Assembly: GCA_964416345.1 (NCBI GenBank)
Contig: CAYQDX010000002.1
Coordinates: 1 to 43,330 of the forward strand
Direction of reading: 5' to 3'
Origin: an uncultured Ectothiorhodospiraceae bacterium
GTDB lineage: Bacteria; Pseudomonadota; Gammaproteobacteria; CAYQDX01
Length of the DNA stretch: 43,330 nucleotides
The notes beneath the pieces were generated by a model. It was not told where the DNA came from. It made no database searches and saw nothing but the letters and a program-made list of their open reading frames with translations. Shown here in pieces: positions 434 through 24,461 of this stretch. A program made the translations under genes and the position numbers. Every line of letters starts with the position of its first letter. Within the stretch, counting starts at the first letter, position 1.

Positions 434-937
434 CTAGTTGCGGGACGGGAAAAGGCCCCGCAGTGCGATACAGAAGTTCAACGCCAGATAGGGCTGCATG
501 TTCTCGTGGGCCTGGCCACCCCCTACGTTGGTGACAGTGCCGGCTTGCAGCTGGATCAGGTTGGCAGCGCCTTGTTTGTACAGGCCTCCCACTTCCCGTG
601 CCAGGAGATGGCCCGGTGGAGTGTTGCTGTCGCCCTGGGTCGAGGAAGCTTGCAGCACATGGTCATGTTGCGGCATTTCGTTGGCGCTCAGGGTGTGGGT
701 CTCTTCACCGCTCTTTTGGCCCTCCCGGTGGCCTTCACCCACATGGATGGGCGTACGCCCACGCAGATCGGGCAGCGCGAAGGTCGTTCTGCCGTCACCG
801 CCGTAGGTGGTGCCGAGCAGCGAATAAAGGGACTGATTCTGGTTGATGGGGAGTATCTGGCCGTCGCAGAAAGCCCAGCCCCGCGGTGCGAAGTTGAAGC
901 CGACTATCCGGACCTCGGCAAGAAATGGCTCTGACAT
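434..937 (-). CDS. Phage tail collar domain protein (MdpB-like)
   Basis: From ORF 434..1105, with the start trimmed to the ATG at 937, which has AGGAGG just upstream. MSEPFLAEVRIVGFNFAPRGWAFCDGQILPINQNQSLYSLLGTTYGGDGRTTFALPDLRGR matches the collar-domain signature. Only 13 nt separate it from the next collar gene. Confidence 0.85.
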   Translation of the reverse strand: MSEPFLAEVRIVGFNFAPRGWAFCDGQILPINQNQSLYSLLGTTYGGDGRTTFALPDLRGRTPIHVGEGHREGQKSGEETHTLSANEMPQHDHVLQASSTQGDSNTPPGHLLAREVGGLYKQGAANLIQLQAGTVTNVGGGQAHENMQPYLALNFCIALRGLFPSRN

Positions 938-1037
938 GACGCCTCCTGTCCTGCAGCATGGAGATGCTGGCTGCGATGTTGCCCTATCGTTGTTACTCGT
1001 TTGAAGCCAAAAAGGCCGTTCTGTTCGGCGGCGACCC

Positions 1038-4000: not shown

Positions 4001-6734
4001 CGGTCTGGCCGGACTCATCCGGCGGGCCGGCAAGGATGGCTGTGGCCCAGGGGCTGACCGTCTGCGCCCCGACGTCCTGAGGGGAGGTCTGATCAGGCCC
4101 CTTGGTGAAGGAAGGTGCGTCGTTGACCGGCGCTACCGTCACCGTCTTACTGGTTGTGGCGCTGGGGTCGGTGCCGTCGTTGGCGACGAAATCGATCTGC
4201 CGGTCCGTGGGGTCCGGATTCTGGGAGCTGTTGTCGTAGGTGACGGTGCGCAGCACCTGCTGGTAGTTGGCCAGGGTGTCGCTGCCGCTCAGTGTTAGGG
4301 TCGGCGCCACGTAATTCGCCGTAATGGCGGTACCGCCCGTGGTGGCAGCCAGGACTTCCTTGCCGCTGTCCAGCAGGTTGGTGATGGTCACGGTGGCGGA
4401 GGCGAGGTTGACATCGTCTGCATCGGTCACGGTCACCGCGGCGTCCAGCGCCACCGGACCACCGTCTTCGATAAAGGCGGCACTGCCCGCGCTGGTCGTC
4501 ACCACCGGCAGGTCGTTCACTGATGTCACCGTCACGGTCTTGCTAGCGATGGCACTGTCGAGGGCACCGTCATTGGCCAGGAAGTCGATCTGCCGCGGCG
4601 TGGCGTCGGGGCTCTGGGAGCCGTTGCCGTAGGTAACGGTGCGCAGCACCTGCTGGTAGTTGGCGGGCGTGTCACTGCCGCTCAGGGTCAGGACGGGTGC
4701 CACGTAGCTCGCCGTGATGGCGGTGCCCGTTGTGTCGGCGACCAGGATCTCCTGCCCGGTGTCCTGGAGGTTGGTGATGGTCACGCTGGCGGAAGCCAGG
4801 CTTGCATTGTCCACATCGATGACCGTCACCCCGGCGTCCACGGCCACCGGCCCGGCGTCTTCGATGAAGGCCGTGGGACCCGCGCTGGTGGTCACCACCG
4901 GCGCGTCGTTAACCGGTGTCACCGTCATTGTCTTGCTGGCCGTGGCGCTGGGATCGGTGCCGTCATTGGCCACGAAATCGAGTTGTCGCGGTGTGACATT
5001 CGGATTCTGGGAGGTATTGTCATAGGTCACGGACTGTAGACAGGCCTGATAGACCGCCGGAGGCTGGCTGCCGGTGATGCTGAGGCTGTTGAGTCCCGGG
5101 GTCACGGTCAGTGCCGCGCAGGCGCTGGCGGCCAGCACCTCGGCCGCGCCGTCCTGGGAATTGGCGATGGTCACGGTGGCGGACGCGAGGGTGGCATTGT
5201 CCGCATCGGTCACCGTCACGCCGGCGTCCACCACTAGCGGCCCCCCATCCTCGGTAAAGGCCGTCGCGCCGCCCGTGGTGGTCACGATCGGTGGATCGTT
5301 CACCGCCGACACCGTGATGATGAAGCTCTGCGCAGCCGAGGTGTCCACGCCGCCGTTGGCGGTGCCGCCGTCATCCGTGGCTACCAGGGTGATGTTGGCG
5401 ACGCCACTGGCGTTGGGGGCTGAGGTGAAGCTCAGCGACCCGTCGGTTACGACGGTCGGTCCCGCGGCGAACAGACCGGGGTTGTCATTGGCCGCGATGT
5501 TAAAGCTCACCGTCTGCCCGGACTCGTTGGCGGGGCCCGGGGAGATGCCGGTGGCCCAGGGGCTGATGGTCTGGGCGCCGCTGTCCTCTGGCACCGTCAC
5601 GTCCGGGCCCTTGACGAAGGTGGGCGGATCGTTGACCGGGGCCACCTGGATGGTGACGGTGGCGTCCGTCGAATCGAGCTGCCCGTCGTTGGCGCGGTAG
5701 GTGAAACTGTCGGTGCCGTTGAAGTCGGCGCCGGGGGTGTAGTCGAAGGAGCCGTCGGGGTTCAGGGTGAGGGCACCGTTTGCGGTGGTGACGCCCAGCA
5801 CCGCAGTCAAGCTGGTGCCCGCATCCGGGTCCGTATCGTTGGCCAGCACGCCGGTGGCGACCGGGACGTTGAGCACGGTGTCCTCGTCGACGGCATAGGG
5901 TCCGTCGTCCACCGCCGTGGGCGCCTGATTCATGTCCGCATCGATGCGGAAGTACAACCCGCCCGCCTCCGGCGAGGCGTAGACGGTCAGGATGTCCGCA
6001 TTGAGCCCGTCACCGGGCGGGTCCGTGGCCAGCGGCGCAATCCCGGACCAGTCGTCGATCTGACCGTCCAGCACGATGGCGGCCACCGCCACGCCGATGC
6101 CACCCACCAGCAGCACCACCGCCAGCGCACCGCCGGCGACTCCGGGATGGCGGCGCAGCAGCACGGCCGCCCCCAGCAGTAGGAGCATCGCCAGGCCCAG
6201 ACCCAGGGCGGAGAGGGTGGGGATCTGGATGACGTCGGTGATGATAATAGGACCGCCGCCGGTGCTCAGCAGGGCGTCCTCGTTCCCCAGGGCATTCTCG
6301 CTGGACATGAAGCCCACCCGGATGGTGGGGTGAGTCAGCTGATCCTTGGGAAATACCGTCTCGATGACGTCCTCGCCGGCCGGGCCGTTTCCCAGGCCCA
6401 CCGGCCACGGGCCGGCCTGCACGCTGATGGGGGTACCGAAGGCGTCAGTGCTCGGGTCCACACATTCCCGCCGGCTCGCCCCGGTGACGTTGGAGCCGCT
6501 GGCATCGGTCGCCACGCCGGTGATGAGCATCTGCTCGACGCCGTCGAAGGGGCCGTCCACGGTCATCACGGTGCAGCCGGTGCCGGCGTCGTTGTCCAGA
6601 TCGAGCAGGACGCGGAATTCGGAGTCCACCGCCAGCGCGGGGGCGCTCAGCACACTGAGTAGGAAGCCTAGGCACAGGAGGCGCCAGCCTTGGTGGCCAG
6701 ACATCCAATTCTGGGAACGGGGGCGTGCGCTCAT
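1038..6734 (-). CDS. Giant surface/secreted adhesin-like protein: Sec signal, small N-domain, internal IPTL-like anchor, cadherin-like VNDxP tandem domains, C-terminal right-handed parallel beta-helix
   Basis: ORF 1038..6800 (1920 aa). The preferred start is the ATG at 6734 (GGAG 9 nt upstream), followed by the signal-like WRLLCLGFLLSVLSAPALA|VD. Residues ~390-1230 are repeated ~111-aa and ~131-aa modules, each ending in VNDPP/VNDAP. Residues ~1340-1900 are Gly/Asn/Thr-rich with NNxxNGI and ITNN-type beta-helix turns. There are no GGxGxD RTX nonapeptides. Confidence 0.85.
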   Translation of the reverse strand: MSARPRSQNWMSGHQGWRLLCLGFLLSVLSAPALAVDSEFRVLLDLDNDAGTGCTVMTVDGPFDGVEQMLITGVATDASGSNVTGASRRECVDPSTDAFGTPISVQAGPWPVGLGNGPAGEDVIETVFPKDQLTHPTIRVGFMSSENALGNEDALLSTGGGPIIITDVIQIPTLSALGLGLAMLLLLGAAVLLRRHPGVAGGALAVVLLVGGIGVAVAAIVLDGQIDDWSGIAPLATDPPGDGLNADILTVYASPEAGGLYFRIDADMNQAPTAVDDGPYAVDEDTVLNVPVATGVLANDTDPDAGTSLTAVLGVTTANGALTLNPDGSFDYTPGADFNGTDSFTYRANDGQLDSTDATVTIQVAPVNDPPTFVKGPDVTVPEDSGAQTISPWATGISPGPANESGQTVSFNIAANDNPGLFAAGPTVVTDGSLSFTSAPNASGVANITLVATDDGGTANGGVDTSAAQSFIITVSAVNDPPIVTTTGGATAFTEDGGPLVVDAGVTVTDADNATLASATVTIANSQDGAAEVLAASACAALTVTPGLNSLSITGSQPPAVYQACLQSVTYDNTSQNPNVTPRQLDFVANDGTDPSATASKTMTVTPVNDAPVVTTSAGPTAFIEDAGPVAVDAGVTVIDVDNASLASASVTITNLQDTGQEILVADTTGTAITASYVAPVLTLSGSDTPANYQQVLRTVTYGNGSQSPDATPRQIDFLANDGALDSAIASKTVTVTSVNDLPVVTTSAGSAAFIEDGGPVALDAAVTVTDADDVNLASATVTITNLLDSGKEVLAATTGGTAITANYVAPTLTLSGSDTLANYQQVLRTVTYDNSSQNPDPTDRQIDFVANDGTDPSATTSKTVTVAPVNDAPSFTKGPDQTSPQDVGAQTVSPWATAILAGPPDESGQTVTFNITGNTNVALFSAGPAVSSTGVLTYTSAPGVYGNATITLEAMDDGGTANGGVDTSASQSFVITVTQVNQPPSFTKGPDETVLEDAGAQTVNPWATTISPGPAGESGQTVSFNITNNTNAALFSAGPAVSSSGGLTYTPAANANGSATITLVAMDDGGTAGGGMDTSAPQSFVINVTPVNDAPSFAKGLDSTVNEDAGPQAVNPWATAISTGPANESGQTLTFNITANTNPGLFSAGPAVDSSGVLTYTPAANANGMASITLEAMDNGGTGNGGVDTSATQTFTITVNAVNDPPVAQNKTGFAAQANMKILGLGDSATLLAGVTDADTGVSGCMPTFSVASITSSSGGTVSNVNLGAGTFDFDPAPGFTGNAIVQYTVADDGCPGSATSAPANITINVSGPVIWFVDPGPGTNGTGTLSSSFSSLASANTAKGASVNHRVFVYTGMTGAGVGVTLAGGATQPMAQWLIGQGATGSNFDSLMGIAPPSGTIPRPSIGGTRPTIQGTLTLNGNNVRAQGFNLVTGTLTGINDAVGAVSGVSVSEASVTSTTGTAVALSNLDGTISLTSVSANGGTAPGIDLDTTGGSFAVTGSGAGDCKNDAAQCSGGTIANRAGAGDGADGILLNAAANVSLAYMQVDNNNRNGIFGTAVNGFVFNQLRITNNADQASPDEAGILMMNSAGMATISNTLVQNSYEHDVVIRNTSGTLTNLAVSNSTFSNDGASGSAANQFFVDTGGTGNVTVNMSACTIVGGGGTLTAFGAVGDVAAGSLSFVSSTGTVTNANVGLSASASSAGALIFGFQNNIPITGSRSYAINDFANASHTSTIDGREEGNTVGTFGTLASGSQTGSGSRVSNEGGGTATVLIDGNTIQEVGNGSFAGFEGIYVNKAVTSGTTNVTITDNMLDQIRDDRGLNAQIIFAGTQCANISGNTFTNIGGSDDLRVRQTAGTFNVTQTSVANLSAVNNGATATAAGTISYGQPACPTPP
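3117..4127. repeat. Three tandem ~333-bp (111-aa) intragenic repeats (module A: SFTKGPD...GAQTV.PWAT.I..GP..ESGQT.TFNIT.NTN..LFSAGPAV...G.LTYT...ANG.A.ITL.AMDDGGTANGGVDTS); a fourth, separated copy at 5301..5636
   Basis: gtcgtccatgg recurs at 3528 and 3861, giving a period of 333 bp. The protein modules at residues 892-1003, 1003-1114 and 1114-1228 align throughout, and residues 389-500 form an outlying copy. Confidence 0.8.
4125..5303. repeat. Three tandem ~393-bp (131-aa) intragenic repeats (module B: VNDxP-VVTTSAG..AFIEDGGP...VTYDN.SQNP...ANDG)
   Basis: The period was measured directly: gcgcagcacctgctggtagttgg occurs at 4248 and again at 4641, giving 393 bp. Antisense ORFs 4324..4632 and 4714..5025 translate to near-identical peptides. 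Protein copies 2 and 3 are roughly three-quarters identical by eye. Confidence 0.85.
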
Positions 6735-7182
6735 GATCCTGGTCTCCGCGCTCAGGTGAATGGCGTAGTCATGGTTGTCCTGGGGCATGGTGCCAGGCAC
6801 CCGCCAGGCTGCAGGACCGTGAGACGCCGCGGGCGGGCGGCATCACGAGGGATTGCGTCGATTCGGATGGGTGGTCACGGTGGCGTGTCGCTTTGACCCT
6901 TATTCTTTTTACCTGCCGGCGCCCGCCGTCGGACGGCCGAGACCAGTCCGTGCATTGTGACGCTGCGCTCACTCCGCAGAAGAGCTGGCTTTGACCGGCT
7001 AGTGCTCCGTTGTGCCGCAGGACGGCACACCAGAGCTTTATAACCGTCGGCACACGCCTTGTCCAGAACGAATGCCGCCGGAGGACAAAGCTCCGTACGC
7101 GCAGCCTTTGCGGCCACGCGGGCAATTGCGTAAGCTTCGCCGAGCGCCTGGTGAGCCGGGCGCATCAGCAACGGGGACCACA

Positions 7183-8637
7183 ATGGCAATCGACTGCAGC
7201 GCCTACGAGGTGGCGGGCCATTACGACGAGCTGTTCGCCGCCACCGGCAAGCCCCGCAAGGCCGCCAAGCCTCTCTGCCACTATCTCAACAAGCTGTCGG
7301 ACGAAGATCTGCAGGAGCGCAGGAGCTCGGTGGATCTCGCGATCATGACCATGGGCATCACATTCACGGTCTATACCGAGGGCAGCAACATCGACCGAGC
7401 CTGGCCCTTCGACGTAATTCCCCGCATCATCCCGCGCAAGGAATGGGAGCGCACCGAAGCCGGCCTTAAGCAGCGGCTCACGGCGCTCAACCTGTTCATC
7501 AGCGATCTCTACGGCGAGCAGAAGGTCATCAAGGATGGCGTCTTTCCCGCCGATGTCCTGGCCCAGTCCAAGAATTTCCGTCCCCAGTGCGTGGGTACCA
7601 CGCCGGCCTTCGGGGTCTGGGCGCACATCTGCGGCAGTGACCTCGTGCGGGACAAGGACGGCACCCTGTACGTGCTGGAGGACAATCTGCGTGTGCCTTC
7701 CGGGGTCTCCTACATGCTGGAGAACCGGCAGGTGATGAAGCGGGTATTCGCGGAGCTGTTCGAGGATTACGACATCCTGCCGGTGGACGACTATCCGACC
7801 CAGCTGTTCGACACCCTGGCGGCAATTTCGCCGCGGCCTGCCGACTACCCGGAGGTGGTGGTGCTGACTCCGGGCATCTATAACTCGGCCTATTTCGAGC
7901 ACAGCTACCTCGCGCAGCAGATGGGCGCCGAGCTAGTGCAGGGCTCGGATTTGGTGGTGGGGGAGGACGACTGCGTCTACATGAAGACCATCGCGGGCAT
8001 GTCCAGGGTGGACGTCATATACCGCCGCATCGACGACGAGTTTCTGGATCCGGAGGCTTTTCGCGAGGACTCGGTGCTGGGCGTGAAGGGCCTCATGCGC
8101 GCCTGGCGCAAGGGCAACGTGTCGTTGGCCAACGCTCCGGGGGCCGGGGTGGCGGACGACAAGGTCGTCTATGCCTTCGTGCCCAGGCTCATCAAGTATT
8201 ACCTGGATCAGGACCCGCTGATTCCCAATGTGCCTACCTATATCTGCATGGACGAAAAGGACCGGGAGCACGTGCTCGCCAACATCGACCAGCTGGTAGT
8301 GAAGCCAGCAAACGAGTCCGGCGGCTACGGCATGCTGGTGGGTCCCCACGCGAGCAAGTCGGAGCACAAGAAATTCGTCGAGCTGATCAAGGAAAATCCC
8401 CGCAACTACATCGCTCAGCCCACGCTGACCCTATCCACCGCGCCAACCCTCTGCGACGGTCGGATGGAGCCCCGCCACCTGGATCTGCGGCCATTCATAC
8501 TGCAGGGGGAGAGCCTCAGCGTGACCACCGGCGGCCTGAGCCGGGTCGCCCTGCGCAAGGGCTCGCTGGTCGTGAACTCCTCCCAGGGCGGTGGCAGCAA
8601 GGACACCTGGGTGGTCGATATGGGGGAGGATGCCTGA
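7183..8637 (+). CDS. Circularly permuted type-2 ATP-grasp protein (COG2308 family)
   Basis: From ORF 7012..8637 (GTG), trimmed to the ATG at 7183 (GGGGA upstream). MAIDCSAYEVAGHYDELF... with YVLEDNLRVPSGVSYMLENR, SLANAPGAGVADDK and NSSQGGGSKDTWV is typical of this family. It parallels the N-half of the fused gene at 10505..13066. Confidence 0.9.
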   Translation: MAIDCSAYEVAGHYDELFAATGKPRKAAKPLCHYLNKLSDEDLQERRSSVDLAIMTMGITFTVYTEGSNIDRAWPFDVIPRIIPRKEWERTEAGLKQRLTALNLFISDLYGEQKVIKDGVFPADVLAQSKNFRPQCVGTTPAFGVWAHICGSDLVRDKDGTLYVLEDNLRVPSGVSYMLENRQVMKRVFAELFEDYDILPVDDYPTQLFDTLAAISPRPADYPEVVVLTPGIYNSAYFEHSYLAQQMGAELVQGSDLVVGEDDCVYMKTIAGMSRVDVIYRRIDDEFLDPEAFREDSVLGVKGLMRAWRKGNVSLANAPGAGVADDKVVYAFVPRLIKYYLDQDPLIPNVPTYICMDEKDREHVLANIDQLVVKPANESGGYGMLVGPHASKSEHKKFVELIKENPRNYIAQPTLTLSTAPTLCDGRMEPRHLDLRPFILQGESLSVTTGGLSRVALRKGSLVVNSSQGGGSKDTWVVDMGEDA

Positions 8638-9596
8638 TGCTGTCGCGGGTCGCCGAGAATATCTACTGGGTGGGGCGCTACGTGGAGCGGGCGGAGAACA
8701 CCGCGCGCCTCATTAATACCACCACCAATCTGCTGCTGGATCTGCCCCGGGGCATCGCCCTGGGCTGGGCGCCCCTGGTGAACATCATGGGCGTCTCCCA
8801 GGAGTTCTACCAGAATTTCGAAGCGCCATCCGAGCGCAACGTGCTGCGATTCCTCATCTGCGATGAGCGCAATTCCAGCTCCATCACACGTAGCCTGGCG
8901 GGGGCACGGGAGAACGCCCGCACCCTGCGCGACGTGCTGCCGCGCGAGGCCTGGGAGCAGATAAACGACTCCTATTTATACGTGCAGTCCCAGGCCGCCG
9001 GTGGTCTGGGGCGACGCTCGCGTTTCGATCTGATGCGCAATGTCATTCTGCGCTGCCAGACCATCGTCGGTCTGCTGGGTGGCACCATGAGCCACGACGA
9101 GGCCTATCAGTTCTCCCGCCTGGGGCGTAATCTGGAGCGGGCCGACATGACGACGCGCATCGTGGACGTGAGCTCGGCGGACCTGCTCCCCAAGCAGGCC
9201 GACGACCTCAAGCCCTACGCCAACATCCGCTGGATGACCGTGCTGAAGTCTCTCACCGCCTACCAGATGTATCGCCAGCACGTGCAGGTGCGGGTCAAGG
9301 GCCCCGACGTGCTGCGCTTCCTGCTTCAGGACCGTTTTTTGCCGCGCGCGGTGGTGCATTGCCTGGGGAATGCCGCGACCTGCTTGCAGGGCCTGCCGAA
9401 CAACGACGCGACCCTGCGCACCCTGGGCCGGGTGCGGCGGCGGGTGGACGACGCGGACGTCTACACCCTGGCGACGACCGGATTGCACGAGTTCATAGAC
9501 GATCTGCAGCTCGGCCTCAACGACATCCACGTGGCCATCGCCCAGACCTATTTCGGTCTGGATCTCCCGGGCGCTATGACTCAGGCTCAGGGATAG
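8637..9596 (+). CDS. Alpha-E domain protein (COG2307 family)
   Basis: MLSRVAENIYWVGRYVERAENTARL is the canonical alpha-E N-terminus. The ATG overlaps the upstream TGA by 1 nt (TGATG), which indicates translational coupling. Confidence 0.9.
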   Translation: MLSRVAENIYWVGRYVERAENTARLINTTTNLLLDLPRGIALGWAPLVNIMGVSQEFYQNFEAPSERNVLRFLICDERNSSSITRSLAGARENARTLRDVLPREAWEQINDSYLYVQSQAAGGLGRRSRFDLMRNVILRCQTIVGLLGGTMSHDEAYQFSRLGRNLERADMTTRIVDVSSADLLPKQADDLKPYANIRWMTVLKSLTAYQMYRQHVQVRVKGPDVLRFLLQDRFLPRAVVHCLGNAATCLQGLPNNDATLRTLGRVRRRVDDADVYTLATTGLHEFIDDLQLGLNDIHVAIAQTYFGLDLPGAMTQAQG

Positions 9597-9644
9597 TGCT
9601 CCACCGAGGTAATAGTTGCGTAATTATCACCTTGATGGAGTACT
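9595..9644. repeat. Palindromic extragenic/3'-end element, copy 1 (degenerate)
   Basis: AGTGCTCCACCGAGGTAATAGTTGCGTAATTATCACCTTGATGGAGTACT aligns along its whole length with the perfect palindrome at 42774..42827. It spans the 30-nt gap between convergent genes. It overlaps the alpha-E TAG (9594-9596) and contains the transglutaminase TGA (9627-9629). Confidence 0.8.
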
Positions 9645-10508
9645 CGGCCGCATGTCCACGCCCACGTAGAGCTGATGGGTGCCGTTGCCGTAGATCACGC
9701 CCTTCAACGGCGGCACGTCCGAGTAGTCTCGACCCCAGGCGAGCGTGATGTAGCGACCGTCCGGCATCTGGTCGTTGGTCGGGTCGAGATCCCTCCAGCC
9801 GGCACCCGGCTGATAGACCGACAGCCAGGCATGGGAAGCGTCGGTCCCGTCCAGCCGGGCCTCGCCCGCCGGCGGCGCGGTCTCCAGGTAGCCGCTCACA
9901 TAGCGGGCCGCCAGCCCCAGGGAGCGCAGGCAGGCCATGGCCAAGTGGGCGAAATCCTGGCACACGCCACGGCGCTGGGCGAGCACCTCCGAGAGGGGGG
10001 TGGTGACGGTGGTGAAGCCCGGCTCATAGACGAATTCCCGATGGATGCGGGCGCTGAGGCTCTGCATCGCCTCCAGCAGCGGACGTCCGGCGGGGAAGGA
10101 TGGGCGGGTGTAGTCCCTCAATGCGGACGTCGCGGCGGCCAGAGGCGAATCCAGCACCATGGCGCGCGCCTCCAGGGCTTCAGGAGCGAGACCGGTGCTG
10201 ATCTGCTCGGCGGCCTGCTCCCAGGCTAGCGGCGGTGGCAGTGCGGGCGGCGCCTCATCGGCCTCCACTTCGCTCACCGCGCGCACGCTCAGCTCGCCAT
10301 GGGGCCGCTGCACCGAGAAATAGCTCACGGTGTTGCCGAAAAAGTCCTTGCGCTCGCGATAGGCGGTGGGCTCCGGCTCCACGCTGAGGCGGCTGGTGAA
10401 CAGCCGCTGGCCGGCGCACGCCCTGGGTATCAAGCGCGCCTCGTTGTGGCCGACGTGAGTCGGCTCCCCGTAGACGTAGCGCGTCGTGTGGGTGATGCGA
10501 TATCTCAC
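9627..10508 (-). CDS. Transglutaminase-like cysteine peptidase family protein (COG1305; N-terminal bacterial transglutaminase-N region plus core)
   Basis: ORF 9627..11201 is over-extended. The real start is the GTG at 10506-10508, forming a GTGA overlap with the stop of the upstream gene. The protein starts VRYRITHTTRYVYGEP..., typical for the family, and retains Cys (RRGVCQDFAH), His (DASHAW) and Asp (DLDPTN). Confidence 0.9.
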   Translation of the reverse strand: MRYRITHTTRYVYGEPTHVGHNEARLIPRACAGQRLFTSRLSVEPEPTAYRERKDFFGNTVSYFSVQRPHGELSVRAVSEVEADEAPPALPPPLAWEQAAEQISTGLAPEALEARAMVLDSPLAAATSALRDYTRPSFPAGRPLLEAMQSLSARIHREFVYEPGFTTVTTPLSEVLAQRRGVCQDFAHLAMACLRSLGLAARYVSGYLETAPPAGEARLDGTDASHAWLSVYQPGAGWRDLDPTNDQMPDGRYITLAWGRDYSDVPPLKGVIYGNGTHQLYVGVDMRPSTPSR

Positions 10509-13066
10509 AGCAACGGCTCGGCGTGGGTGGGGGCCAGCGGCTGTGGTCCACGGGCGTGGCTGAAATAGCTGCGCGCGATGGCGCGGGAGCCATCGGCCAG
10601 TCCCTGGAAGATGTCGGCCAGCAGCCGGTCCAGCGCCTGGCGCAGGACCGTGCCTTCCGTGACCTGCGCCAGCCGCTCTGTGTCGGTGAGCCGCAGCCGG
10701 GTGTAGAGATCCAGCACCAGCCGCTCTTCGGGGCTCAGACGGTGGGGCACGCGCTTGCGTGGCAGCTCGGCCACGTGGCTCTGCAGCCGGGCCAGCTGGA
10801 AGGCCAGGGACCGGGGGCTGGTCTCGTCCAGCAGCATGAGGTCCAGGGCCGACTGAGCCTGAAGCCGGGATCGGTAGCGGCGGCGATGGGTGATCAGGGT
10901 CTCGTTGGCGGTGAGCACGGCCTCCAGCAGCAGCCGCTCCGTCCAGGGGTTCCGCTGGACCACCAGGGTCGCCCGCAACAGTGAGGCAATCTGCATTCCC
11001 CGCTCCAGCCGCCGGCCCAGGTCCAACAGTAGCCAGCCCTGTTCCCGGGTCATGCTCTCCATGGTCAGTCCGGTGAACGCCACCAGATCCGTTAGCAGCC
11101 CATCGAGCCGACCCTCCAGACGGTCCAGGCCGCGTCTGGGCTTGCGGAGGCGCCAATCCTGGTCGATGTCGTCGATCACGCGCCAGGTGTCCTGGGACCA
11201 TAGGTCGCGCACCTCGAAGGCGGCCTGCACCAGTCCCTGCAGCGTGGCCGAGAGGCCGCCGCTGCGACTGCGATCCATGGCCAGGCTGAGCAGCTCCGGC
11301 TCGGGGTTGGCCAGGCGCTCAGCGGCCCCGTCGCCGACGAAGCCGGGATAGCTCATGGTGAGGTGAGTGAGTGCCCCCAGCAGGGCGTCCAGGCACCCGC
11401 GCTCTTCGGTCCCCGCCGTCTCGTCGCTATTCCGCAGGGTCCGCAGCACCGTGCGCAGCAGCCGCACCGCCCCTTCGGCTCGCTCTGCGTTGCGGCCTAC
11501 CCAGTACAGGTTGTCCGCGACGCGGCTGGACAGGGCGTCGCTGCGGGCCACCAGGGCAGGGCCGGAGAGCGCTAACGGCGGTGCGATCGCGGCCGGCTCG
11601 CCTTCGGTCGCCAGCACCCAGGTGTCCTTGCTGATGCCGCCAGCCTGGTTCGTGACGATAAGGCTGTCCCGGTCCGGACTGATGCGGGCGAGGCCGCCGG
11701 GCATGACGGTGTACCCGCGCTCGCCCGCCACCACGAAGCCTCGCAGCATGACGTGGCGCGGCGTCAGACGTCCTGCGGCCAGCGCCGGGGCGGTGGAGAA
11801 GCCGATCTGCTCTTGCGCGACGTACTGCGCGGGATGGGCGCGGATGCGCGCCCGCCACTTGGCCAGCTCCCGGCCGCTCAGGCGGGAGCCGAACACCGAG
11901 CGGAAGTTCTCCCGCCTGTCCACGGGCTTGACCACCAGCTCAGGCAGATGGCTCAGCACGTACTTGAGCTCGGCTGGCTGGCCGCACCACCAGGTCGCCA
12001 CCGAGGGCAGCAGCAGGTCCTGGTCCAGTAGGCGGCGGGCGGCGCCGGGGAGGAACGGCAGCAGGGCGGGGGTCTCCAGCACTCCGCTGCCCAGCGGGTT
12101 GGCGACGGCCACCTGCCCCCGCCGCGCCGCTTCCAGCAGGCCTGCTACCCCGAGTCTGGACTCTTGCATCAGCTCCAACGGGTCGCAGTACGCGTCGTCC
12201 AGCCGGCGCAGGATGACGTCCACCTGGCCCAGGCCCTCCAGCGACTTCAGCCAAACCTTGGCATTGCGCACCGCCAAGTCGTCGCCCTGCACGAGCGTGT
12301 AGCCCAGGTTGGTGGCCAGGTAGGCGTGCTCGAAGTAGGTCTCGTTGCGGGGGCCAGGAGTGAGCACCACCACCCGCGGATTTTCGCGATGCACGGCAGC
12401 AATCCGGGCCAGGCAGCTGCGCAGGGTCTCGAAGAACACACCCAGGCGCCGCACCCGGCAATCGCGGAACACCTGGGGCAGCACGCGACTCACCACGCTG
12501 CGGTTCTCCAGGGCATAGCCGGCGCCCGAGGGGGCCTGGGTACGGTCGCCCACCACCCACATGCGGCCGTCCGGACCGCGCGCCAGGTCCGCCGCATACA
12601 GAAGGAGCTGGTGGTCACCACGCAGCCGCACTTGGTCGCAGGGGCGCAGGAACCCACTGTGAGCATAAACCAGCTCCAGTGGGAGCAGGCCTTCACTGAT
12701 GAGCTGCCGTGCGCCGTAGAGGTCCTTCAGCACGAGATCCAGCAGCTCTGTGCGCTGGGCCAAGCCGGCCTCGATGCCCGACCACTCCGCGGCGTCCACG
12801 AGCAAAGGCAGCGCGTCCAGCTCCCAGGGCCGGTTGACACCCTGAGGATCCCCATAGACGGTGTAGCTGACGCCGCTCTCCCGCAGCAGCCGGCGCAGGT
12901 CCTGGCGCCGAGCCTCCAGCTCCTCGGAGCCGATAGCGTCTAGGGCGCGGGCGAAGCCTTGCCAGTGCGGACGCAACCCGGCCGCGCCAGCGCACATCTC
13001 GTCGTTGCCCTCGACCTCCGTGGCATAGTCGGCGGTCAGACCGATGGTTTTGTCGGCGGAAACCAT
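10505..13066 (-). CDS. Fused circularly permuted ATP-grasp + alpha-E protein
   Basis: ORF 10505..13117 (TTG start). I prefer the ATG at 13066 (MVSADKTIGLTADY...NDEMC..GLRPHW), although the TTG at 13117 lies 1 nt after the upstream stop and is a real alternative. The N-half carries YALENR, VANPLGSGVLE and ISKDTWVL. The C-half starts LSSRVADNLYWVGRNAERAEG, which is the alpha-E signature. Confidence 0.85.
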   Translation of the reverse strand: MVSADKTIGLTADYATEVEGNDEMCAGAAGLRPHWQGFARALDAIGSEELEARRQDLRRLLRESGVSYTVYGDPQGVNRPWELDALPLLVDAAEWSGIEAGLAQRTELLDLVLKDLYGARQLISEGLLPLELVYAHSGFLRPCDQVRLRGDHQLLLYAADLARGPDGRMWVVGDRTQAPSGAGYALENRSVVSRVLPQVFRDCRVRRLGVFFETLRSCLARIAAVHRENPRVVVLTPGPRNETYFEHAYLATNLGYTLVQGDDLAVRNAKVWLKSLEGLGQVDVILRRLDDAYCDPLELMQESRLGVAGLLEAARRGQVAVANPLGSGVLETPALLPFLPGAARRLLDQDLLLPSVATWWCGQPAELKYVLSHLPELVVKPVDRRENFRSVFGSRLSGRELAKWRARIRAHPAQYVAQEQIGFSTAPALAAGRLTPRHVMLRGFVVAGERGYTVMPGGLARISPDRDSLIVTNQAGGISKDTWVLATEGEPAAIAPPLALSGPALVARSDALSSRVADNLYWVGRNAERAEGAVRLLRTVLRTLRNSDETAGTEERGCLDALLGALTHLTMSYPGFVGDGAAERLANPEPELLSLAMDRSRSGGLSATLQGLVQAAFEVRDLWSQDTWRVIDDIDQDWRLRKPRRGLDRLEGRLDGLLTDLVAFTGLTMESMTREQGWLLLDLGRRLERGMQIASLLRATLVVQRNPWTERLLLEAVLTANETLITHRRRYRSRLQAQSALDLMLLDETSPRSLAFQLARLQSHVAELPRKRVPHRLSPEERLVLDLYTRLRLTDTERLAQVTEGTVLRQALDRLLADIFQGLADGSRAIARSYFSHARGPQPLAPTHAEPLL

Positions 13067-13118
13067 GGACAAAGCTTGCCGTGTCGGCGCCCGGGTGGCA
13101 ACGGCATGGGAGGGCAAT

Positions 13119-13862
13119 CTACTTGGAGGACGCCTTCTCGAAATCGAATCGCGGCAGCTCGTCGAAGACGCGTTTCAAGCCCTCGGTCCAGTGCTTGCGC
13201 AGCGATGCATAGTAGGGCGTATTGAGCTTGAACCTGTAGCGGCGTCCCTGCACCAGGCTGTCCTTGTGGTACAGCAGCAGTTCTACCGGCGGACCCACGG
13301 ACAGGTTGCTGCGCATGGTCGAGTCGATGGAGACCAAGGCACAGCGCCCCGCGTCTTCCAGCGACAAGCTGGGCTGGATGATGCGATCCAGGATGGGCTT
13401 GCCGTATTTGGTCTCCCCTATCTGCAGGAAAGGATGCTCGGGGCTGACGCGGATGTTGTTCCCTTGCGGATAGATGAGAAAGAGCTCCGGCGGCTCCGCC
13501 CCGATCTGTCCGCCGAGAATGAAGCTCGCCTCGAAGCTCACCGCCTGCTGGGTCATCCCCTCCTGGCGGCGCTGAATGGCGGCGCTCACTTCACCCACAT
13601 ACTCCGCCGCCTCCGTCATGTGGGCGGCGGTACGCAGGGTGGGCTGCTCGCCTTGCAGCTTGCTGTCCAGCTCCAGCTTCTTGACCACTGCCTGCGTGGT
13701 GCCCAGATTGCCCGCGCTCAGCAGCACCAATACCCGCTCGCCCTCCCAAACGAAAGTGTGCATCTTGCTGTAAGTGCTGATGTTGTCCACCCCCGCACTG
13801 GTCAGGGAGTCAGAGGCGAACACGAGACCCGCATTCAGGGAGATGGCGAGACAGTAAGTCAT
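13119..13862 (-). CDS. Anbu-type proteasome-like peptidase (COG3484, N-terminal nucleophile hydrolase)
   Basis: From ORF 13119..14111, trimmed to the ATG at 13862. MTYCLAISLNAGLVFASDSLTSAGVDNISTYSKMHTF..GERVLVLLSAGNLGTTQ matches my memory of Anbu sequences, with Thr directly after Met. Its genomic context alongside ATP-grasp, alpha-E and transglutaminase genes is diagnostic. Confidence 0.85.
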   Translation of the reverse strand: MTYCLAISLNAGLVFASDSLTSAGVDNISTYSKMHTFVWEGERVLVLLSAGNLGTTQAVVKKLELDSKLQGEQPTLRTAAHMTEAAEYVGEVSAAIQRRQEGMTQQAVSFEASFILGGQIGAEPPELFLIYPQGNNIRVSPEHPFLQIGETKYGKPILDRIIQPSLSLEDAGRCALVSIDSTMRSNLSVGPPVELLLYHKDSLVQGRRYRFKLNTPYYASLRKHWTEGLKRVFDELPRFDFEKASSK

Positions 13863-14006: not shown

Positions 14007-14088
14007 TTCTGCCTCACCTGAGCTCGACCACCCGGATGCAATTTCGCCAATGACGGCCCGTGCCGCATCTCGCCAAAAAGGCAGTCTC

Positions 14089-17000
14089 ATGCGCCCTGTC
14101 CTAGTCTGCATCGTGCTGCTGCTCTCGCTGGCCGCATGCTCGGGTCCGCCGGAGGGTCAGAGCCAGAGGCAGCCGGGCGGCGCTCGCGACCACGCGGCGG
14201 CACCGGGTGCCGTCGCGGCCCGGAGCCGGCCGGTCGGGCCGGACGCCGAGGCCATCGCCGCCAACAACCACGGTGTGGGCCTGATGGGCAAGTTCGACTA
14301 CCCGGCCGCCTACGATGTGTTCAACCGGCTGGCGCAACGCTACCCGGATTGGCTGGAGGTGCAGGTCAACCGGGCGATTGCGACCCTGAATCGGCAGCAG
14401 GAGGGGGACGAGGCCGCTGCCCTCGGCATGGTCGATCAGGTGCTTGCGAAGGAACCCGGGAATCTGCGGGCCAATTACGTGGCCGGTCTACTGCGGCTCT
14501 ATCTCGCCTCGCCCCAACAGGCGGTGACCCACTTCCAGCGAGTGGCCGAGGCGGATCCCAAGGATGCGTACGCCGCCTACTACCTGGGACAGTGCCTGGC
14601 GCAATTGTCCAAATATGGGGAGGCCCTGGCCCAGTATCGGCGGGCCCTCACCTTGGACCCCTACCTACGCAGCGCCTACTACGGCGCGTTCCAGACCCTG
14701 CAGCGTCTGCACAAGACCGCGGCGGCGAGGACGCTGATCGGCGACTACCAGCGGCTCGCCAACAATCCCCGGGCTCGCCTGGCGGAGCTCAAGTACACCC
14801 GCATGGGACCCAAGGCCGAAGCGCTGGCAGTGGACCTGCCGGCCCCCGTGCCGGTGCCCCGGCCCGGCGGAGAGGTCTTCACGGGGGCGGCGGGCCTCCC
14901 CATCGACGGTGGGGCCGCGCTTGGCTGGGCCAAGCACCAGGCGGCGGATCGCAGCGCCAGCGTCACCGCCGTGGATCTGCAGGGGGACGGCTACCTGGAT
15001 CTATTCGTCGCCGGCGCATTGGCCGGTGCCCCGGGTCCCAATCTGGTGTTGGAGGGCAGTGCGACGGGGACTTTCAAGGTCGTCCAGGGATGGCCATTGA
15101 GCGGCGTGGACCACGTAAGCGCGGCCCTGTGGGGTGATTTCGACAACGACGGCTTGGTTGACGTCTACCTCTGCCGCCGGGGCGCCAACCAGCTCTGGCG
15201 CCAGGCGTCCAAAGGCAAGTGGGAGGACGTCACCGCCAAAGCCGGGGTCGCCGGCGGCGATCACGAAACCCTGGGCGGCACCGTGCTCGACGCCGACCAT
15301 GATGGTGATCTGGATATTTATGTGATCAACGCGGATGGTCCCGGCGAGCTGTACAACAACAACCTCGACGGCACCTTCAGACCCTTGGCGGCATCCCAGG
15401 GTATCGGCGGCAGCGCCAAGGGGGCGCGTCAGGTCCTGCCGGTGGATCTGGACGGCGACCTGGACCTGGATCTCGTGGTCTTCAATGCCGCTGCGCCTAA
15501 CGACGTCTATCTCAACGACCGCATGTGGGTCTACCGGGAGGCGTCCGGCTACGACGCGCTACGCAAGGCCAGCGTGCTTGCCGCCGTGGCGGGGGATGCG
15601 GATGCCGACGGCATGCCGGAGATCTACACACTCTCCCGCGATGGCACCGTGCGGCGCTGGGGCGCCGGCTTCGGCGGGACTTGGCAGGGGCAGAACCTGC
15701 CGGAGCTCGCCGGCCCACTGCCCGAGGACGGCGGCGCACGGCTCGCCCTGCTGGACGTGGATGGCGACGGGACGCCGGAGCTGCTGCGAGCCACGGCCGA
15801 TGGCTGGCTCGCCGGACGGCTGGGTGCGGGCGACCGGCAGATCCTGTACCGCGCCCAGGCCGATCTAGCCGGCTGGGCGCCGGTGCTGCTGCAGCCGGGC
15901 AAGGGCCCAGAGGTGATCGGGCTGCAGGCTGCAGGCGGATTGCAGCACTGGGCCCCGGGGCCGGGTCGCTATCCTTTCCTCGGTCTGACCCTCACGGGCA
16001 TGGAGGACAGCGGCGCATCCATGCGCTCCAACGCCTCCGGCCTGGGCGCCCGGGTGGCGGTGCGGGTGGACTCCCGCTGGAGCATCGCGAGCAGCCTGCC
16101 GCAGAGCTCGGGGCCAGGCCAATCGCTGCAGGGTGTGGCGGTCGGCCTCGGCGGGGCGCCCAAGGCCGACTTCGTTGCCATCGACTGGTCGGACGGAGTC
16201 TATCAGAGTGAGCTGGATCTGCAGGCCGGAGAGTCGCATCGCATCTCCGAGACCCAGCGCCAGCTCTCCAGCTGCCCCGTGCTGTTTGCCTGGGACGGCA
16301 AGCACTTTGCGTTCGTCAGCGATCTGCTGGGCGTCGGTGGACTGGGCTATGCGCTGGGACCGGGTGAATACGCGCCCTCACGGCCATGGGAGAATTTCCT
16401 ACTGCCTAGGGACTTGGCGCAGCCTCGTGGGGGCCGCTATGAGCTCAAGATCAGCGAGCCCATGGAGGAGGTGGCCTACCTCGATGCGGCGAGCCTGCGC
16501 GTCTACGATCTGCCGCCCGGCTGGGATCTGGTGCTGGACGAGCGCATGGGCACTGGTGACCCGGAGCCGACCGGGGCGCCATGGCTCTACCGCGCTGAGC
16601 TGCTGCCACGGTCGGCCCGCAACGAGCGGGGTGAGGACGTGACGGCGGCAGTGCTGCGGGCCGATGGTAGGGCCGCGCCGCCGGGTGCGCTGGATCGACG
16701 CTTCATCGGTCGTCTGGCCGGCACGCATGTGCTGACTCTGGAGCTCCCGTCGGCCCTGGACGCCCATGCCGGGAAGCCGGTGCTGGTGATGGACGGCTGG
16801 GTGGAATACCCGTACTCGCAGACCATGGTGGCGGCGTGGCAGGCGGGGGCGGCCTACCATTCACCCGCCCTCGAGGCTCGGGGGGCCGACGGCCGCTGGC
16901 ACACCCTGCTGCGCGAGTTCGGCTACCCGGCAGGGATGCCGCGGCGCATGTCGGTGCCACTGGCTGGGCTGCCGGCCGGCACTCGGGCCTTGCGTCTACG

Positions 17001-17493
17001 CACCAACATGGAGATCTACTGGGATCGCATCAGCGTGGTCTACGCCGAGCCTGCACCTGAGGTGCGCGTCGCGCGGTTACCCCTCACGGCGGCGCGTCTG
17101 GCCAAGACCGGATTTGCGCTGCGCACCACCGGGCCCCAGCGCCGGCCTGACTACGACTATGACCGACGCAGTCCTTTCTGGGACTCCCGCTACCTCAGCG
17201 GCTGGTACACCCGGCTGGGATCCGTGCAGGCGCTGGTGGCGAAAGCCGATGATGCGGTGGCCATCGTCGGCCCGGGCGACGAGGTGCAGCTGAGCTACAC
17301 GGCGCCCGTTGGGCCGCTGCCTCGCGGGTGGACTCGGCGCCTGGTGCTGGAGGCCCGGGGATGGGCCAAGGATCGGGACCTCTATACCAAGGATGGGGGG
17401 ACCGTCGGGCCGTTGCCGACCAGCGGTCGGGGCGGAGCGCGGCGCGAGGAGCTACATCGGCGGTATAACACCCGTTTCCAGGCGGGGACCTGA
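14089..17493 (+). CDS. Lipoprotein with TPR repeats, FG-GAP/VCBS repeats, ASPIC/UnbV domain (CRTAC1-like) and a ~410-aa unassigned C-terminal module
   Basis: From ORF 14050..17493. The preferred start is the ATG at 14089, giving MRPVLVCIVLLLSLAAC with a LAAC lipobox. TPR-like helices follow (YYLGQCLAQLSKYGEALAQYRRALTLDP). Repeated DxDxDGxxD(L/V) FG-GAP calcium-type loops are present (GDFDNDGLVDVYL, DADHDGDLDIYV, VDLDGDLDLDLVV). An UnbV_ASPIC-like stretch reads RSNASGLGARVAVRV...GVAVGLG. Confidence 0.8.
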   Translation: MRPVLVCIVLLLSLAACSGPPEGQSQRQPGGARDHAAAPGAVAARSRPVGPDAEAIAANNHGVGLMGKFDYPAAYDVFNRLAQRYPDWLEVQVNRAIATLNRQQEGDEAAALGMVDQVLAKEPGNLRANYVAGLLRLYLASPQQAVTHFQRVAEADPKDAYAAYYLGQCLAQLSKYGEALAQYRRALTLDPYLRSAYYGAFQTLQRLHKTAAARTLIGDYQRLANNPRARLAELKYTRMGPKAEALAVDLPAPVPVPRPGGEVFTGAAGLPIDGGAALGWAKHQAADRSASVTAVDLQGDGYLDLFVAGALAGAPGPNLVLEGSATGTFKVVQGWPLSGVDHVSAALWGDFDNDGLVDVYLCRRGANQLWRQASKGKWEDVTAKAGVAGGDHETLGGTVLDADHDGDLDIYVINADGPGELYNNNLDGTFRPLAASQGIGGSAKGARQVLPVDLDGDLDLDLVVFNAAAPNDVYLNDRMWVYREASGYDALRKASVLAAVAGDADADGMPEIYTLSRDGTVRRWGAGFGGTWQGQNLPELAGPLPEDGGARLALLDVDGDGTPELLRATADGWLAGRLGAGDRQILYRAQADLAGWAPVLLQPGKGPEVIGLQAAGGLQHWAPGPGRYPFLGLTLTGMEDSGASMRSNASGLGARVAVRVDSRWSIASSLPQSSGPGQSLQGVAVGLGGAPKADFVAIDWSDGVYQSELDLQAGESHRISETQRQLSSCPVLFAWDGKHFAFVSDLLGVGGLGYALGPGEYAPSRPWENFLLPRDLAQPRGGRYELKISEPMEEVAYLDAASLRVYDLPPGWDLVLDERMGTGDPEPTGAPWLYRAELLPRSARNERGEDVTAAVLRADGRAAPPGALDRRFIGRLAGTHVLTLELPSALDAHAGKPVLVMDGWVEYPYSQTMVAAWQAGAAYHSPALEARGADGRWHTLLREFGYPAGMPRRMSVPLAGLPAGTRALRLRTNMEIYWDRISVVYAEPAPEVRVARLPLTAARLAKTGFALRTTGPQRRPDYDYDRRSPFWDSRYLSGWYTRLGSVQALVAKADDAVAIVGPGDEVQLSYTAPVGPLPRGWTRRLVLEARGWAKDRDLYTKDGGTVGPLPTSGRGGARREELHRRYNTRFQAGT

Positions 17494-24032: not shown

Positions 24033-24461
24033 CTGCCGTCCTATGTTGCGGGTCCGGGGAACGGACGCCCTGCAGGCGAGCCTGGCAGGGAAGGCACTGT
24101 CGCCCCGTCCACCTTGGAGCCCCCGCCCAGCGTCACCCGCGGACGGCAAGGAGCCATGCGGCGAAAGCACGTGCGGTTCTCCGCCGCGGCGCAGGCGCCT
24201 GCACTTCGGCGGTCCGGGGCATAACATTCCATGGCGCGTCTCCCTCGGGCACCTCGGATGGATCCTCGCGCGGCGGTCGGTCGCACCGGGGTCGGCGCGG
24301 GGGCGTACAGCCGCGCTCCGCCCTTGCATCGTGCAACGAGATCCCGTAGCTTCCCTAGCCCGTCAACCACCGCTGTCCTCTTGCGGGAGTTCTACCCCAG
24401 CCCGAGCCCAGAGGCAATGCTATCCCAATTCGCAGCGACCTATGGAGTCCGCTGGCCGAAG

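Follow-up and report, generated by a model that had tools for sequence, protein, structure and literature searches.

The Anbu locus examined here lies at positions 7183 to 13862 of a 43-kb window, the whole stretch of 43,330 nucleotides (nt) analysed from an uncultured Ectothiorhodospiraceae bacterium, to which all statements on gene content refer. It was found to comprise five genes on two strands, and alignments indicate that its largest product, a fused ATP-grasp/Alpha-E protein encoded directly downstream of the proteasome-like peptidase Anbu, is very probably a catalytically dead yet conserved pseudo-ligase, a property of the entire fused family. The product of a stand-alone ATP-grasp gene (7183-8637) is the likely active carboxylate-amine ligase of the locus, as predicted from its intact motifs. 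An earlier note on this DNA had described a self-contained three-gene operon of peptidase, fused ligase and transglutaminase, but an intact ATP-grasp and Alpha-E pair of the same system (7183-9596) adjoins these genes on the opposite strand and converges on them, and the unit to be explained is therefore five genes on two strands. The protein identities and the architecture of the locus are given with high confidence.

Both halves of the fusion matched the models expected for them from the earlier note (Pfam CP_ATPgrasp_2, E = 3.5e-153; Alpha-E, E = 1.9e-67), and the ATP-grasp half aligned end to end with 3N6X, the sole solved member of the family (E = 6.5e-92). Three motifs of that family were replaced in the fusion: the element LEDNLRxPSG reads VGDRTQAPSG, with VGDRTQ for LEDNLR at 12536-12553; ADDK reads LETP (12068-12079); and RRENFR stands for the ESGGYG of the glycine-rich loop (11900-11917), where KxxxxSGGYG reads KPVDRRENFRS. 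From general knowledge of ATP-grasp enzymes, we take the E-x-N...PSG element to carry the Mg and ATP ligands. Motif conservation was compared in a first set of 53 stand-alone and 9 fused proteins and in a larger set of 65 stand-alone and 88 fused proteins. In the first, 136 columns were at least 95% conserved among stand-alone ATP-grasps and 37 of these were lost in the fused proteins. The larger set showed the E of E-x-N in 64/65 stand-alone and 0/88 fused sequences, the N in 64/65 stand-alone sequences versus Arg in 84/88 fused ones, and the Arg that follows E-x-N in 63/65 versus Gln in 84/88, while the ADDK Lys (64/65) was exchanged for Pro in 68 of the 88 and the GGYG glycines (64/65) gave way to variable residues. 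As the loss of E-x-N, ADDK and the glycine-rich loop is common to all 88 fused homologues, it is a family-wide property and not that of a single gene, and it speaks against the assignment of the fused gene as a ligase in the earlier note.

Retention of YFEH, RRxDD, PSG, ENR and KDTW in the fused family suggests that the fold, and probably a binding function, is retained. In the Alpha-E half of the fusion the ER motif is kept, with W11, R14, E17, R18 and R24 present in fused and stand-alone proteins, and the fused family retains 16 of the 45 Alpha-E columns that are invariant in stand-alone proteins. Inactive ATP-grasp versions are said, in Iyer et al. 2009 and also in the Pfam PF04174 text, to be often fused N-terminal to Alpha-E; the pseudo-ligase conclusion reached here follows from the alignments, and this statement agrees with it.

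The stand-alone ATP-grasp gave the stronger matches to both references (CP_ATPgrasp_2, E = 3.9e-166; 3N6X, E = 6.9e-158) and retains LEDNLR (7675-7692), ADDK (8152-8163) and ESGGYG (8314-8331), in agreement with 3N6X and with 64 to 65 of the 65 stand-alone homologues. Its ATG is preceded by a Shine-Dalgarno-like GGGGA approximately 6 nt upstream. An ATP-grasp of the Yersinia bercovieri operon releases phosphate from ATP (PMC6376114). The stand-alone Alpha-E protein matched Pfam PF04168 (E = 1.9e-92), and an AlphaFold2 model placed it as an all-alpha protein of 15 helices (predicted local distance difference test, pLDDT, 88.8; predicted template modelling score, pTM, 0.88). No PDB sequence matched Alpha-E and a Foldseek search of the model against PDB returned nothing at E <= 0.001 (best TM-score 0.41), so the modelled fold appears to be one without a solved representative.

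The peptidase matched the Pfam Proteasome model marginally (E = 6.4e-05), but solved Anbu chains aligned with it at E = 1.3e-85 to 4.2e-59 over its full length (residues 2-240 of 247), the H5 helix extension at the C-terminus among them. The best match was 5loy, an Anbu-1 consensus design (1.3e-85), and the four natural Anbu proteins (5nyw, 3e-65; 5lox, 1.6e-64; 5nyj; 5nyf) fell between 3e-65 and 4.2e-59. The catalytic Thr directly follows the initiator Met, and T1, D17 and K32 in mature numbering (the Thr1, Asp17 and Lys33 sought by the earlier note) align with their counterparts in all five Anbu sequences of solved structure and do not vary among 22 homologues. Equivalents of the S1 pocket were T20, Y30, S48, L52 and T55, which are conservative changes only with respect to the amphiphilic pocket of Pseudomonas aeruginosa Anbu (Pa-Anbu; T20, F30, T48, L52 and S55), the pocket of Anbu-2 being basic (PMC5666114). 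The peptidase can be assigned on these alignments, with high confidence, as a bona fide Anbu of subtype Anbu-1, a proteasome-beta-like N-terminal-nucleophile hydrolase; that it is an Anbu had been proposed in the earlier note.

At 13803-13805 (mature residue 19) Leu was found in place of the conserved Arg19, giving DSLTSAG compared with DSRTNAG in most Anbu proteins; Arg19 is conserved in proteasome beta subunits too. Seven of 88 related Anbu sequences carry the substitution; two of them belong to the window lineage itself and the others are mainly from Pseudomonadales or Pseudohongiella metagenome-assembled genomes (MAGs). Because it recurs with the remaining catalytic residues intact, R19L was rejected as a sign of Anbu inactivation. 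The ring of Pa-Anbu is dodecameric and open, its T1 is exposed, and the protein binds proteasome inhibitors (PMC5666114). The earlier note had also called the physiological role of Anbu unsolved, which was still so in the literature of 2021, when no function was known (PMC8665760).

The last minus-strand gene encodes a transglutaminase-like enzyme, as the earlier note had read it, with matches to Bact_transglu_N (E = 1.1e-26) and Transglut_core (E = 1.1e-18). Its catalytic triad is kept and aligned with 3ISR: Cys183 (codon TGC, 9960-9962, in GVCQDF), His226 (9831-9833, in SHAW) and Asp242 (9783-9785, in DLDPTN). Identity was 44-52% to the transglutaminases that follow fused genes, in comparison to 27-34% to those of canonical Anbu operons, and by this pattern the enzyme is of the type that follows fused genes, as in Rv2566-69-like triads, and not of the canonical Anbu-operon type. 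DUF2126 had no match anywhere in the 43-kb window. The locus is thus without a canonical transglutaminase, as the identity pattern indicates, and without a DUF2126 ligase. Large proteins of the Rv2566 type combine a transglutaminase domain with a carboxylate-amine ligase domain (PMC2588565). A literature search that paired DUF2126 with transglutaminase found nothing, and in a 2026 preprint Rv2567 appears solely as a candidate for a different reaction, with a negative result.

The layout of the locus is given in Table 1. The sequence details of the earlier note, namely the MTYC start of the peptidase, its TAG, the TTG and ATG beyond it and the GTGA further on, all held when read directly. Its description of near-zero spacing stood in part: the minus-strand genes, in the order Anbu, fusion and transglutaminase, are tightly packed, and the GTGA at 10508-10505 is a TGA stop overlapping a GTG start, but the junction of Anbu and the fusion is better described by a spacer. 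There the TTG at 13117-13115 lies 1 nt past the Anbu stop and the in-frame ATG at 13066-13064 lies 52 nt past it. The TTG is not conserved, being CTG in L172, a near-identical strain, and ACC in the relative L088, while the 52-nt spacer is conserved in both; the gene caller applied to L172 also picks the ATG. Because the TTG is not conserved, the most likely start of the fusion, as judged by this comparison, is ATG 13066, giving 853 amino acids (aa) and the 52-nt spacer, and the sole true overlap within the minus-strand unit is the fusion/transglutaminase junction.

Table 1. Genes and intergenic intervals of the Anbu locus, in the order of the minus strand.
Feature	Coordinates	Strand	Description
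Anbu	13119..13862	-	247 aa; ATG at 13862, TAG at 13121-13119; begins MTYC, without propeptide
Spacer, Anbu stop to fusion ATG	13067..13118	-	52 nt
ATP-grasp/Alpha-E fusion	10505..13066	-	853 aa (most likely start); CP_ATPgrasp_2 half approximately 11681-12808, Alpha-E half approximately 10562-11533
Transglutaminase-like thiol enzyme	9627..10508	-	293 aa; Bact_transglu_N and Transglut_core; GTG start
Gap between convergent stops (Alpha-E TAG, transglutaminase TGA)	9597..9626		30 nt
Stand-alone Alpha-E	8637..9596	+	319 aa; 1-nt overlap with the ATP-grasp stop (TGATG)
Stand-alone circularly permuted ATP-grasp	7183..8637	+	484 aa; catalytic motifs intact

A terminator scan found no terminator-like hairpin within the convergent gap, and with only 30 nt between the stops the transcripts of the two strands are expected to overlap there. 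Searches for other elements were largely negative: Rfam at gathering thresholds gave no RNA family anywhere in the window, none of the five proteins matched a defence family in PADLOC (E <= 0.001), and NCBIfam gave Anbu only an archaeal proteasome-beta match below threshold and the other four proteins no specific name.

The arrangement was recovered in two samples. The complete five-gene layout is present in L172 (run SRR22807980), and L001 (run SRR9023183) extends across Anbu and the same junction into the fusion, of which it holds the first 1.1 kb. As contigs assembled from two separate sequencing runs share it, the junction is real and an assembly artefact was rejected. The ratio of non-synonymous to synonymous change per site (pN/pS) in comparison to L172 was 0.03 for the ATP-grasp, 0.09 for Anbu, 0.23 for the fusion (46 synonymous and 28 non-synonymous changes), and 0.34 for Alpha-E and 0.43 for the transglutaminase, the last two being calculated from small change counts. 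With values below 1 throughout, all five genes are under purifying selection and are maintained by it. Synonymous divergence itself (pS) varied more than ten-fold along 7183-13862, from 0.008 in Alpha-E and 0.03 in the ATP-grasp to 0.066 in the fusion and 0.11 in Anbu, and this spread hints at recombination inside the locus.

Gene order was surveyed in 160 comparison loci in all, of which 80 were the closest species-representative Anbu loci, a sample biased toward the nearest proteobacterial relatives, and 80 were metagenomic loci found with the fused protein. The earlier note had remarked that the order in the window departs from the common one, and it does differ from the canonical ATP-grasp, Alpha-E, transglutaminase, Anbu order; a peptidase-first order is nevertheless not unusual, as the canonical arrangement was present in just 10/80 Anbu loci. 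Anbu was convergent with Alpha-E and ATP-grasp in 26/80 and divergent in 9/80, it preceded a large transglutaminase, fusion and transglutaminase in three Cellvibrio loci (3/80), and other layouts containing the fusion accounted for a further 3/80. Anbu was alone within 10 kb in 15/80, and the remaining 14/80 were truncated, had Anbu followed by the large transglutaminase only or by a transglutaminase, or were otherwise arranged. Among the 80 metagenomic fusion loci, most had the fusion followed by a small Bact_transglu_N transglutaminase and 11 had Anbu within 6 kb of the fusion, but none had Anbu directly upstream of it. Of the 58 loci that could be assessed, 50 had the large gene immediately before the fusion and eight lacked it there. 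The exact adjacency of Anbu and the fusion was therefore found in 0/160 comparison loci and is unique among them, though each pairwise association in the layout is already common.

The closest Anbu homologues with usable genomic context, at 70% identity, come from L004 (GCA_964563515.1) and L006 (a Joint Genome Institute, JGI, metagenome). In both, Anbu is followed by a large protein of 1126-1131 aa (Bact_transglu_N, Transglut_core and DUF2126), the fusion and a small transglutaminase, upon which Alpha-E and ATP-grasp converge. Gene order, strands and the convergent pair are as in the window, and L004 shows the same 4-nt fusion/transglutaminase overlap. What these relatives have and the window lacks is the DUF2126 gene that follows Anbu, a Crp-family regulator gene on the upstream side of Anbu, and a sigma-54 activator beside the ATP-grasp. 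The locus in the window is accordingly best filed as a reduced, rearranged form of this composite Anbu-plus-triad locus. One of the three other fusion layouts counted above is that of Ectothiorhodospira shaposhnikovii (L031), where the genes for ATP-grasp, Alpha-E, fusion and transglutaminase are consecutive on one strand, without DUF2126, and are convergent with Anbu. In L088, from another metagenome and with a 93% identical Anbu, positions 1195-1273 compared with 13118-13040 of the window have the 52-nt spacer in common and diverge completely exactly at the fusion ATG; this contig ends 28 nt past the divergence, which may mark the breakpoint of a rearrangement or deletion by which the DUF2126 gene was lost, or a chimeric contig end.

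In comparison to known systems, the window shares its four protein families with the canonical Anbu operon (P. aeruginosa, with PA1733; Y. bercovieri), including an Anbu-1 with T1, D17 and K32 and a stand-alone ATP-grasp translationally coupled to Alpha-E. The canonical genes lie on one strand with Anbu last, whereas in the window the pair is on the opposite strand, Anbu is first, an extra pseudo-ligase/Alpha-E fusion is present and the transglutaminase is just 27-34% identical; neither by gene order and strand nor by transglutaminase orthology is it a canonical operon. The second known arrangement is the triad of large transglutaminase-DUF2126, fusion and small transglutaminase, of which Mycobacterium tuberculosis Rv2567 and Rv2569c are presumably the last two genes (fusion and small transglutaminase). 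The window shares with it the fusion-then-transglutaminase pair, the degenerate ATP-grasp motifs and the closer transglutaminase, but it is not a complete triad because the DUF2126 gene, the large transglutaminase/carboxylate-amine ligase, is absent and Anbu stands in its position. All component families and their association, reportedly defined by Valas and Bourne 2008 and by Iyer et al. 2008 and 2009, are already known from comparative genomics, and the locus is an expected member of that neighbourhood. The actinobacterial Pup-proteasome offers an analogy only: there the PafA ligase is accompanied by Dop, a paralogue of altered activity, and by a proteasome-family hydrolase (20S). The ligase of that system is GCS2-like and not an ATP-grasp, and it has a Pup tag gene and an AAA+ unfoldase; no small tag gene and no AAA+ ATPase gene were identified in the Anbu locus.

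Taken as a whole, these results are best explained by a five-gene, two-strand Anbu system with a stand-alone ligase and a non-catalytic fusion that would serve turnover during nitrogen limitation, an explanation to which we give slightly better than an even chance. The stand-alone ATP-grasp and Alpha-E would carry out the only ATP-dependent carboxylate-amine ligation of the locus, forming an amide or isopeptide bond either as a protein tag or in a small peptide. The fusion would be a non-catalytic paralogue of the ligase pair acting as an adaptor or regulator, with its fold and probably its binding surface kept, and the transglutaminase-like enzyme and Anbu would act, by hydrolysis or remodelling, on the amide-linked product or on the proteins that carry the tag. 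This mechanistic chain, from ligation through an adaptor to cleavage or remodelling, is put forward tentatively, as rather less likely than not. The physiological setting would probably be protein or peptide turnover at nitrogen limitation, by analogy with clusters induced through NtrC and sigma-54. In Pseudomonas putida the Anbu operon ranks with the genes that nitrogen limitation induces most strongly (PMC3235984), in Burkholderia cenocepacia a cluster of ATP-grasp, Alpha-E, transglutaminase and large transglutaminase is NtrC/sigma-54 dependent under the same limitation (PMC5491218), and predicted sigma-54 targets are enriched in COG3484 (PMC12316311).

Several observations weigh against this explanation. 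A scan for sigma-54 promoters (TGGCAC-N5-TTGCW, up to 2 mismatches) gave 14 hits compared with 22.7 expected, none of them upstream of either transcription unit, and no sigma-54 activator gene flanks the locus, unlike L004 and L006; as neither promoter nor activator was found at the locus, the nitrogen link is borrowed from other species. By eye, a site with 3 mismatches (TTGT for TTGC at -12) can be seen at 7049-7064 and was not counted, and a sigma-70 scan found nothing. The inactivity of the fusion is read from motif loss only and, with its VVKP lysine kept, the protein may still bind nucleotide. The Alpha-E fold search yielded no mechanistic clue. Two papers of 2017, one of them on Y. bercovieri (PMC6376114), found standard peptidase substrates uncleaved by Anbu, and co-expression and pull-downs gave no stable complexes of it with its operon partners. 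Lastly, the window covers 43 kb of the genome, and genes for a DUF2126 protein and a canonical transglutaminase may lie outside it.

If that were so, the system would be complete but split: the large DUF2126 transglutaminase/ligase would act in trans, perhaps together with a canonical transglutaminase, and the genes of the locus would show only part of the machinery. Anbu loci without a partner gene within 10 kb (the 15/80 above) and the limited span of the window are consistent with this, and the absence of any DUF2126 match within that span speaks against it; we regard a split system as a definite possibility, though on balance an unlikely one. Alternatively, the locus may make and trim a small product instead of tagging proteins. 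This would be an amide metabolite or a non-ribosomal peptide, such as a nitrogen-rich compound for storage or signalling, with Anbu and the transglutaminase as processing peptidases, a peptide-synthesis reading that is attributed to Iyer and co-workers. ATP-grasp enzymes commonly yield small amide products, and the closest homologue of solved structure, 3N6X, was entered in the PDB as a putative glutathionylspermidine synthase. The Rv2566-type large genes have no accompanying Pup-like small open reading frame (PMC2588565), and the clusters induced at nitrogen limitation are so together with urea, polyamine and amino-acid transport genes (PMC5491218). Anbu, in contrast, assembles from many subunits into a large open ring that holds numerous active sites, for which Fuchs et al. 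favour processive protein degradation and consider peptide synthesis less likely (PMC5666114). No product has been detected, and the one metabolite tested was not made by Rv2567 or Rv2411c (2026 preprint). A small product is in our estimate rather unlikely, and the five-gene system with a non-catalytic fusion is preferred.

The self-contained three-gene operon of the earlier note, in which the fusion would be an active ligase that tags substrates for the transglutaminase and Anbu, is improbable. It agrees with the packing on one strand (the 52-nt spacer and the 4-nt overlap), with the highly significant full-length matches of the fusion to ATP-grasp and Alpha-E and with the retention in it of the VVKP lysine and many family motifs. 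Against this, the positions of the E-x-N Mg ligands, the Arg next to them, ADDK and the glycine-rich loop are replaced across the fused family and kept in its stand-alone counterparts, and an intact ligase gene lies 30 nt past the end of the operon and accompanies the fusion both in the closest relatives and in E. shaposhnikovii. A bolder version of the favoured explanation holds that Anbu has been rewired directly upstream of the fusion and that, if the two are neighbours because their products bind each other, the fusion could be the missing Anbu adaptor or activator, a substrate receptor binding the ligase product. This is a long shot; the published reconstitutions, which used the canonical four proteins only, never included the fusion, and the minimal five-gene locus would in that case be a good template for reconstituting Anbu activity. 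Least probable of all is that the fusion and transglutaminase are functionless, decaying leftovers of a triad after deletion of the DUF2126 gene, since the absence here of a large gene that the closest relatives and most metagenomic fusion loci possess, and the higher pN/pS of these two genes than of ATP-grasp and Anbu, are set against intact frames, a catalytic triad and family motifs that are kept, pN/pS well below 1, a layout stable across two samples, and the recurrence of such pairs without the large gene in 8 metagenomic loci and E. shaposhnikovii.

The survey of relatives also revealed variants of Anbu loci that are distinct from the one in the window. A protein of approximately 350 aa with Zn_ribbon_DZR_6 and Peptidase_Mx domains is encoded just downstream of Anbu and convergent with it in 18/80 Anbu loci and in Alkalilimnicola ehrlichii (L002, L008-L010, L012, L022-L024, L041, L042, L045, L046, L052, L054-L056, L067, L071 and L074). 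In about a dozen of these its gene directly follows ATP-grasp and Alpha-E on the same strand, which is the place of the canonical transglutaminase, and these loci appear to represent a recurrent variant of the Anbu system with a metallopeptidase. In A. ehrlichii a second, different ligase/transglutaminase set lies on the opposite strand directly upstream of Anbu (L002:6461-9784), with a RimB-like protein, a 7TM transglutaminase (Transglut_i_TM/7TM_transglut) and ATPgrasp_ST. A Nitrosomonadales MAG (L030:2039-9591) has two Anbu paralogues flanking the ATP-grasp/Alpha-E pair, in the order Anbu, ATP-grasp, Alpha-E, Anbu and large DUF2126 transglutaminase.

Elsewhere in the window, the minus-strand region 434-6800 encodes a protein of 1920 aa that carries Big_9 Ig-like and bacterial cadherin-like repeats, followed by a Collar/Gp10_C phage-tail-collar protein. 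An intergenic region of 382 nt separates them from the divergently transcribed ATP-grasp gene, and the neighbours in L172 are the same, the Collar proteins there being two. Two sets of proteins with TPR and FG-GAP/UnbV_ASPIC domains occur on the plus strand, the first as a single 1147-aa protein with a lipobox-like N-terminus that is divergent from Anbu (14050-17493) and the second split into a 665-aa FG-GAP/ASPIC protein (24231-26228) and a 547-aa TPR protein (26225-27868). A 1343-aa PilZ-DUF1631-GGDEF-EAL signalling protein (20298-24329, minus strand) and a ComEC-type competence protein (28460-30766, plus strand; DUF4131, Competence and metallo-beta-lactamase) are encoded downstream and have no evident link to the Anbu locus.

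In summary, the questions raised since 2008 by Anbu, a proteasome relative of wide distribution, concern its substrate, its partners and its role, and this locus leaves them standing while providing sharper targets for them. The fused "ligase" that lies beside many Anbu genes would be a conserved pseudoenzyme and the active ligase would be encoded elsewhere in the locus, and Anbu can be linked to a triad-type transglutaminase without the large DUF2126 protein. This compact five-gene set, stable in two samples and under purifying selection, may offer a reasonable minimal set for reconstitution, co-expression and complex prediction.

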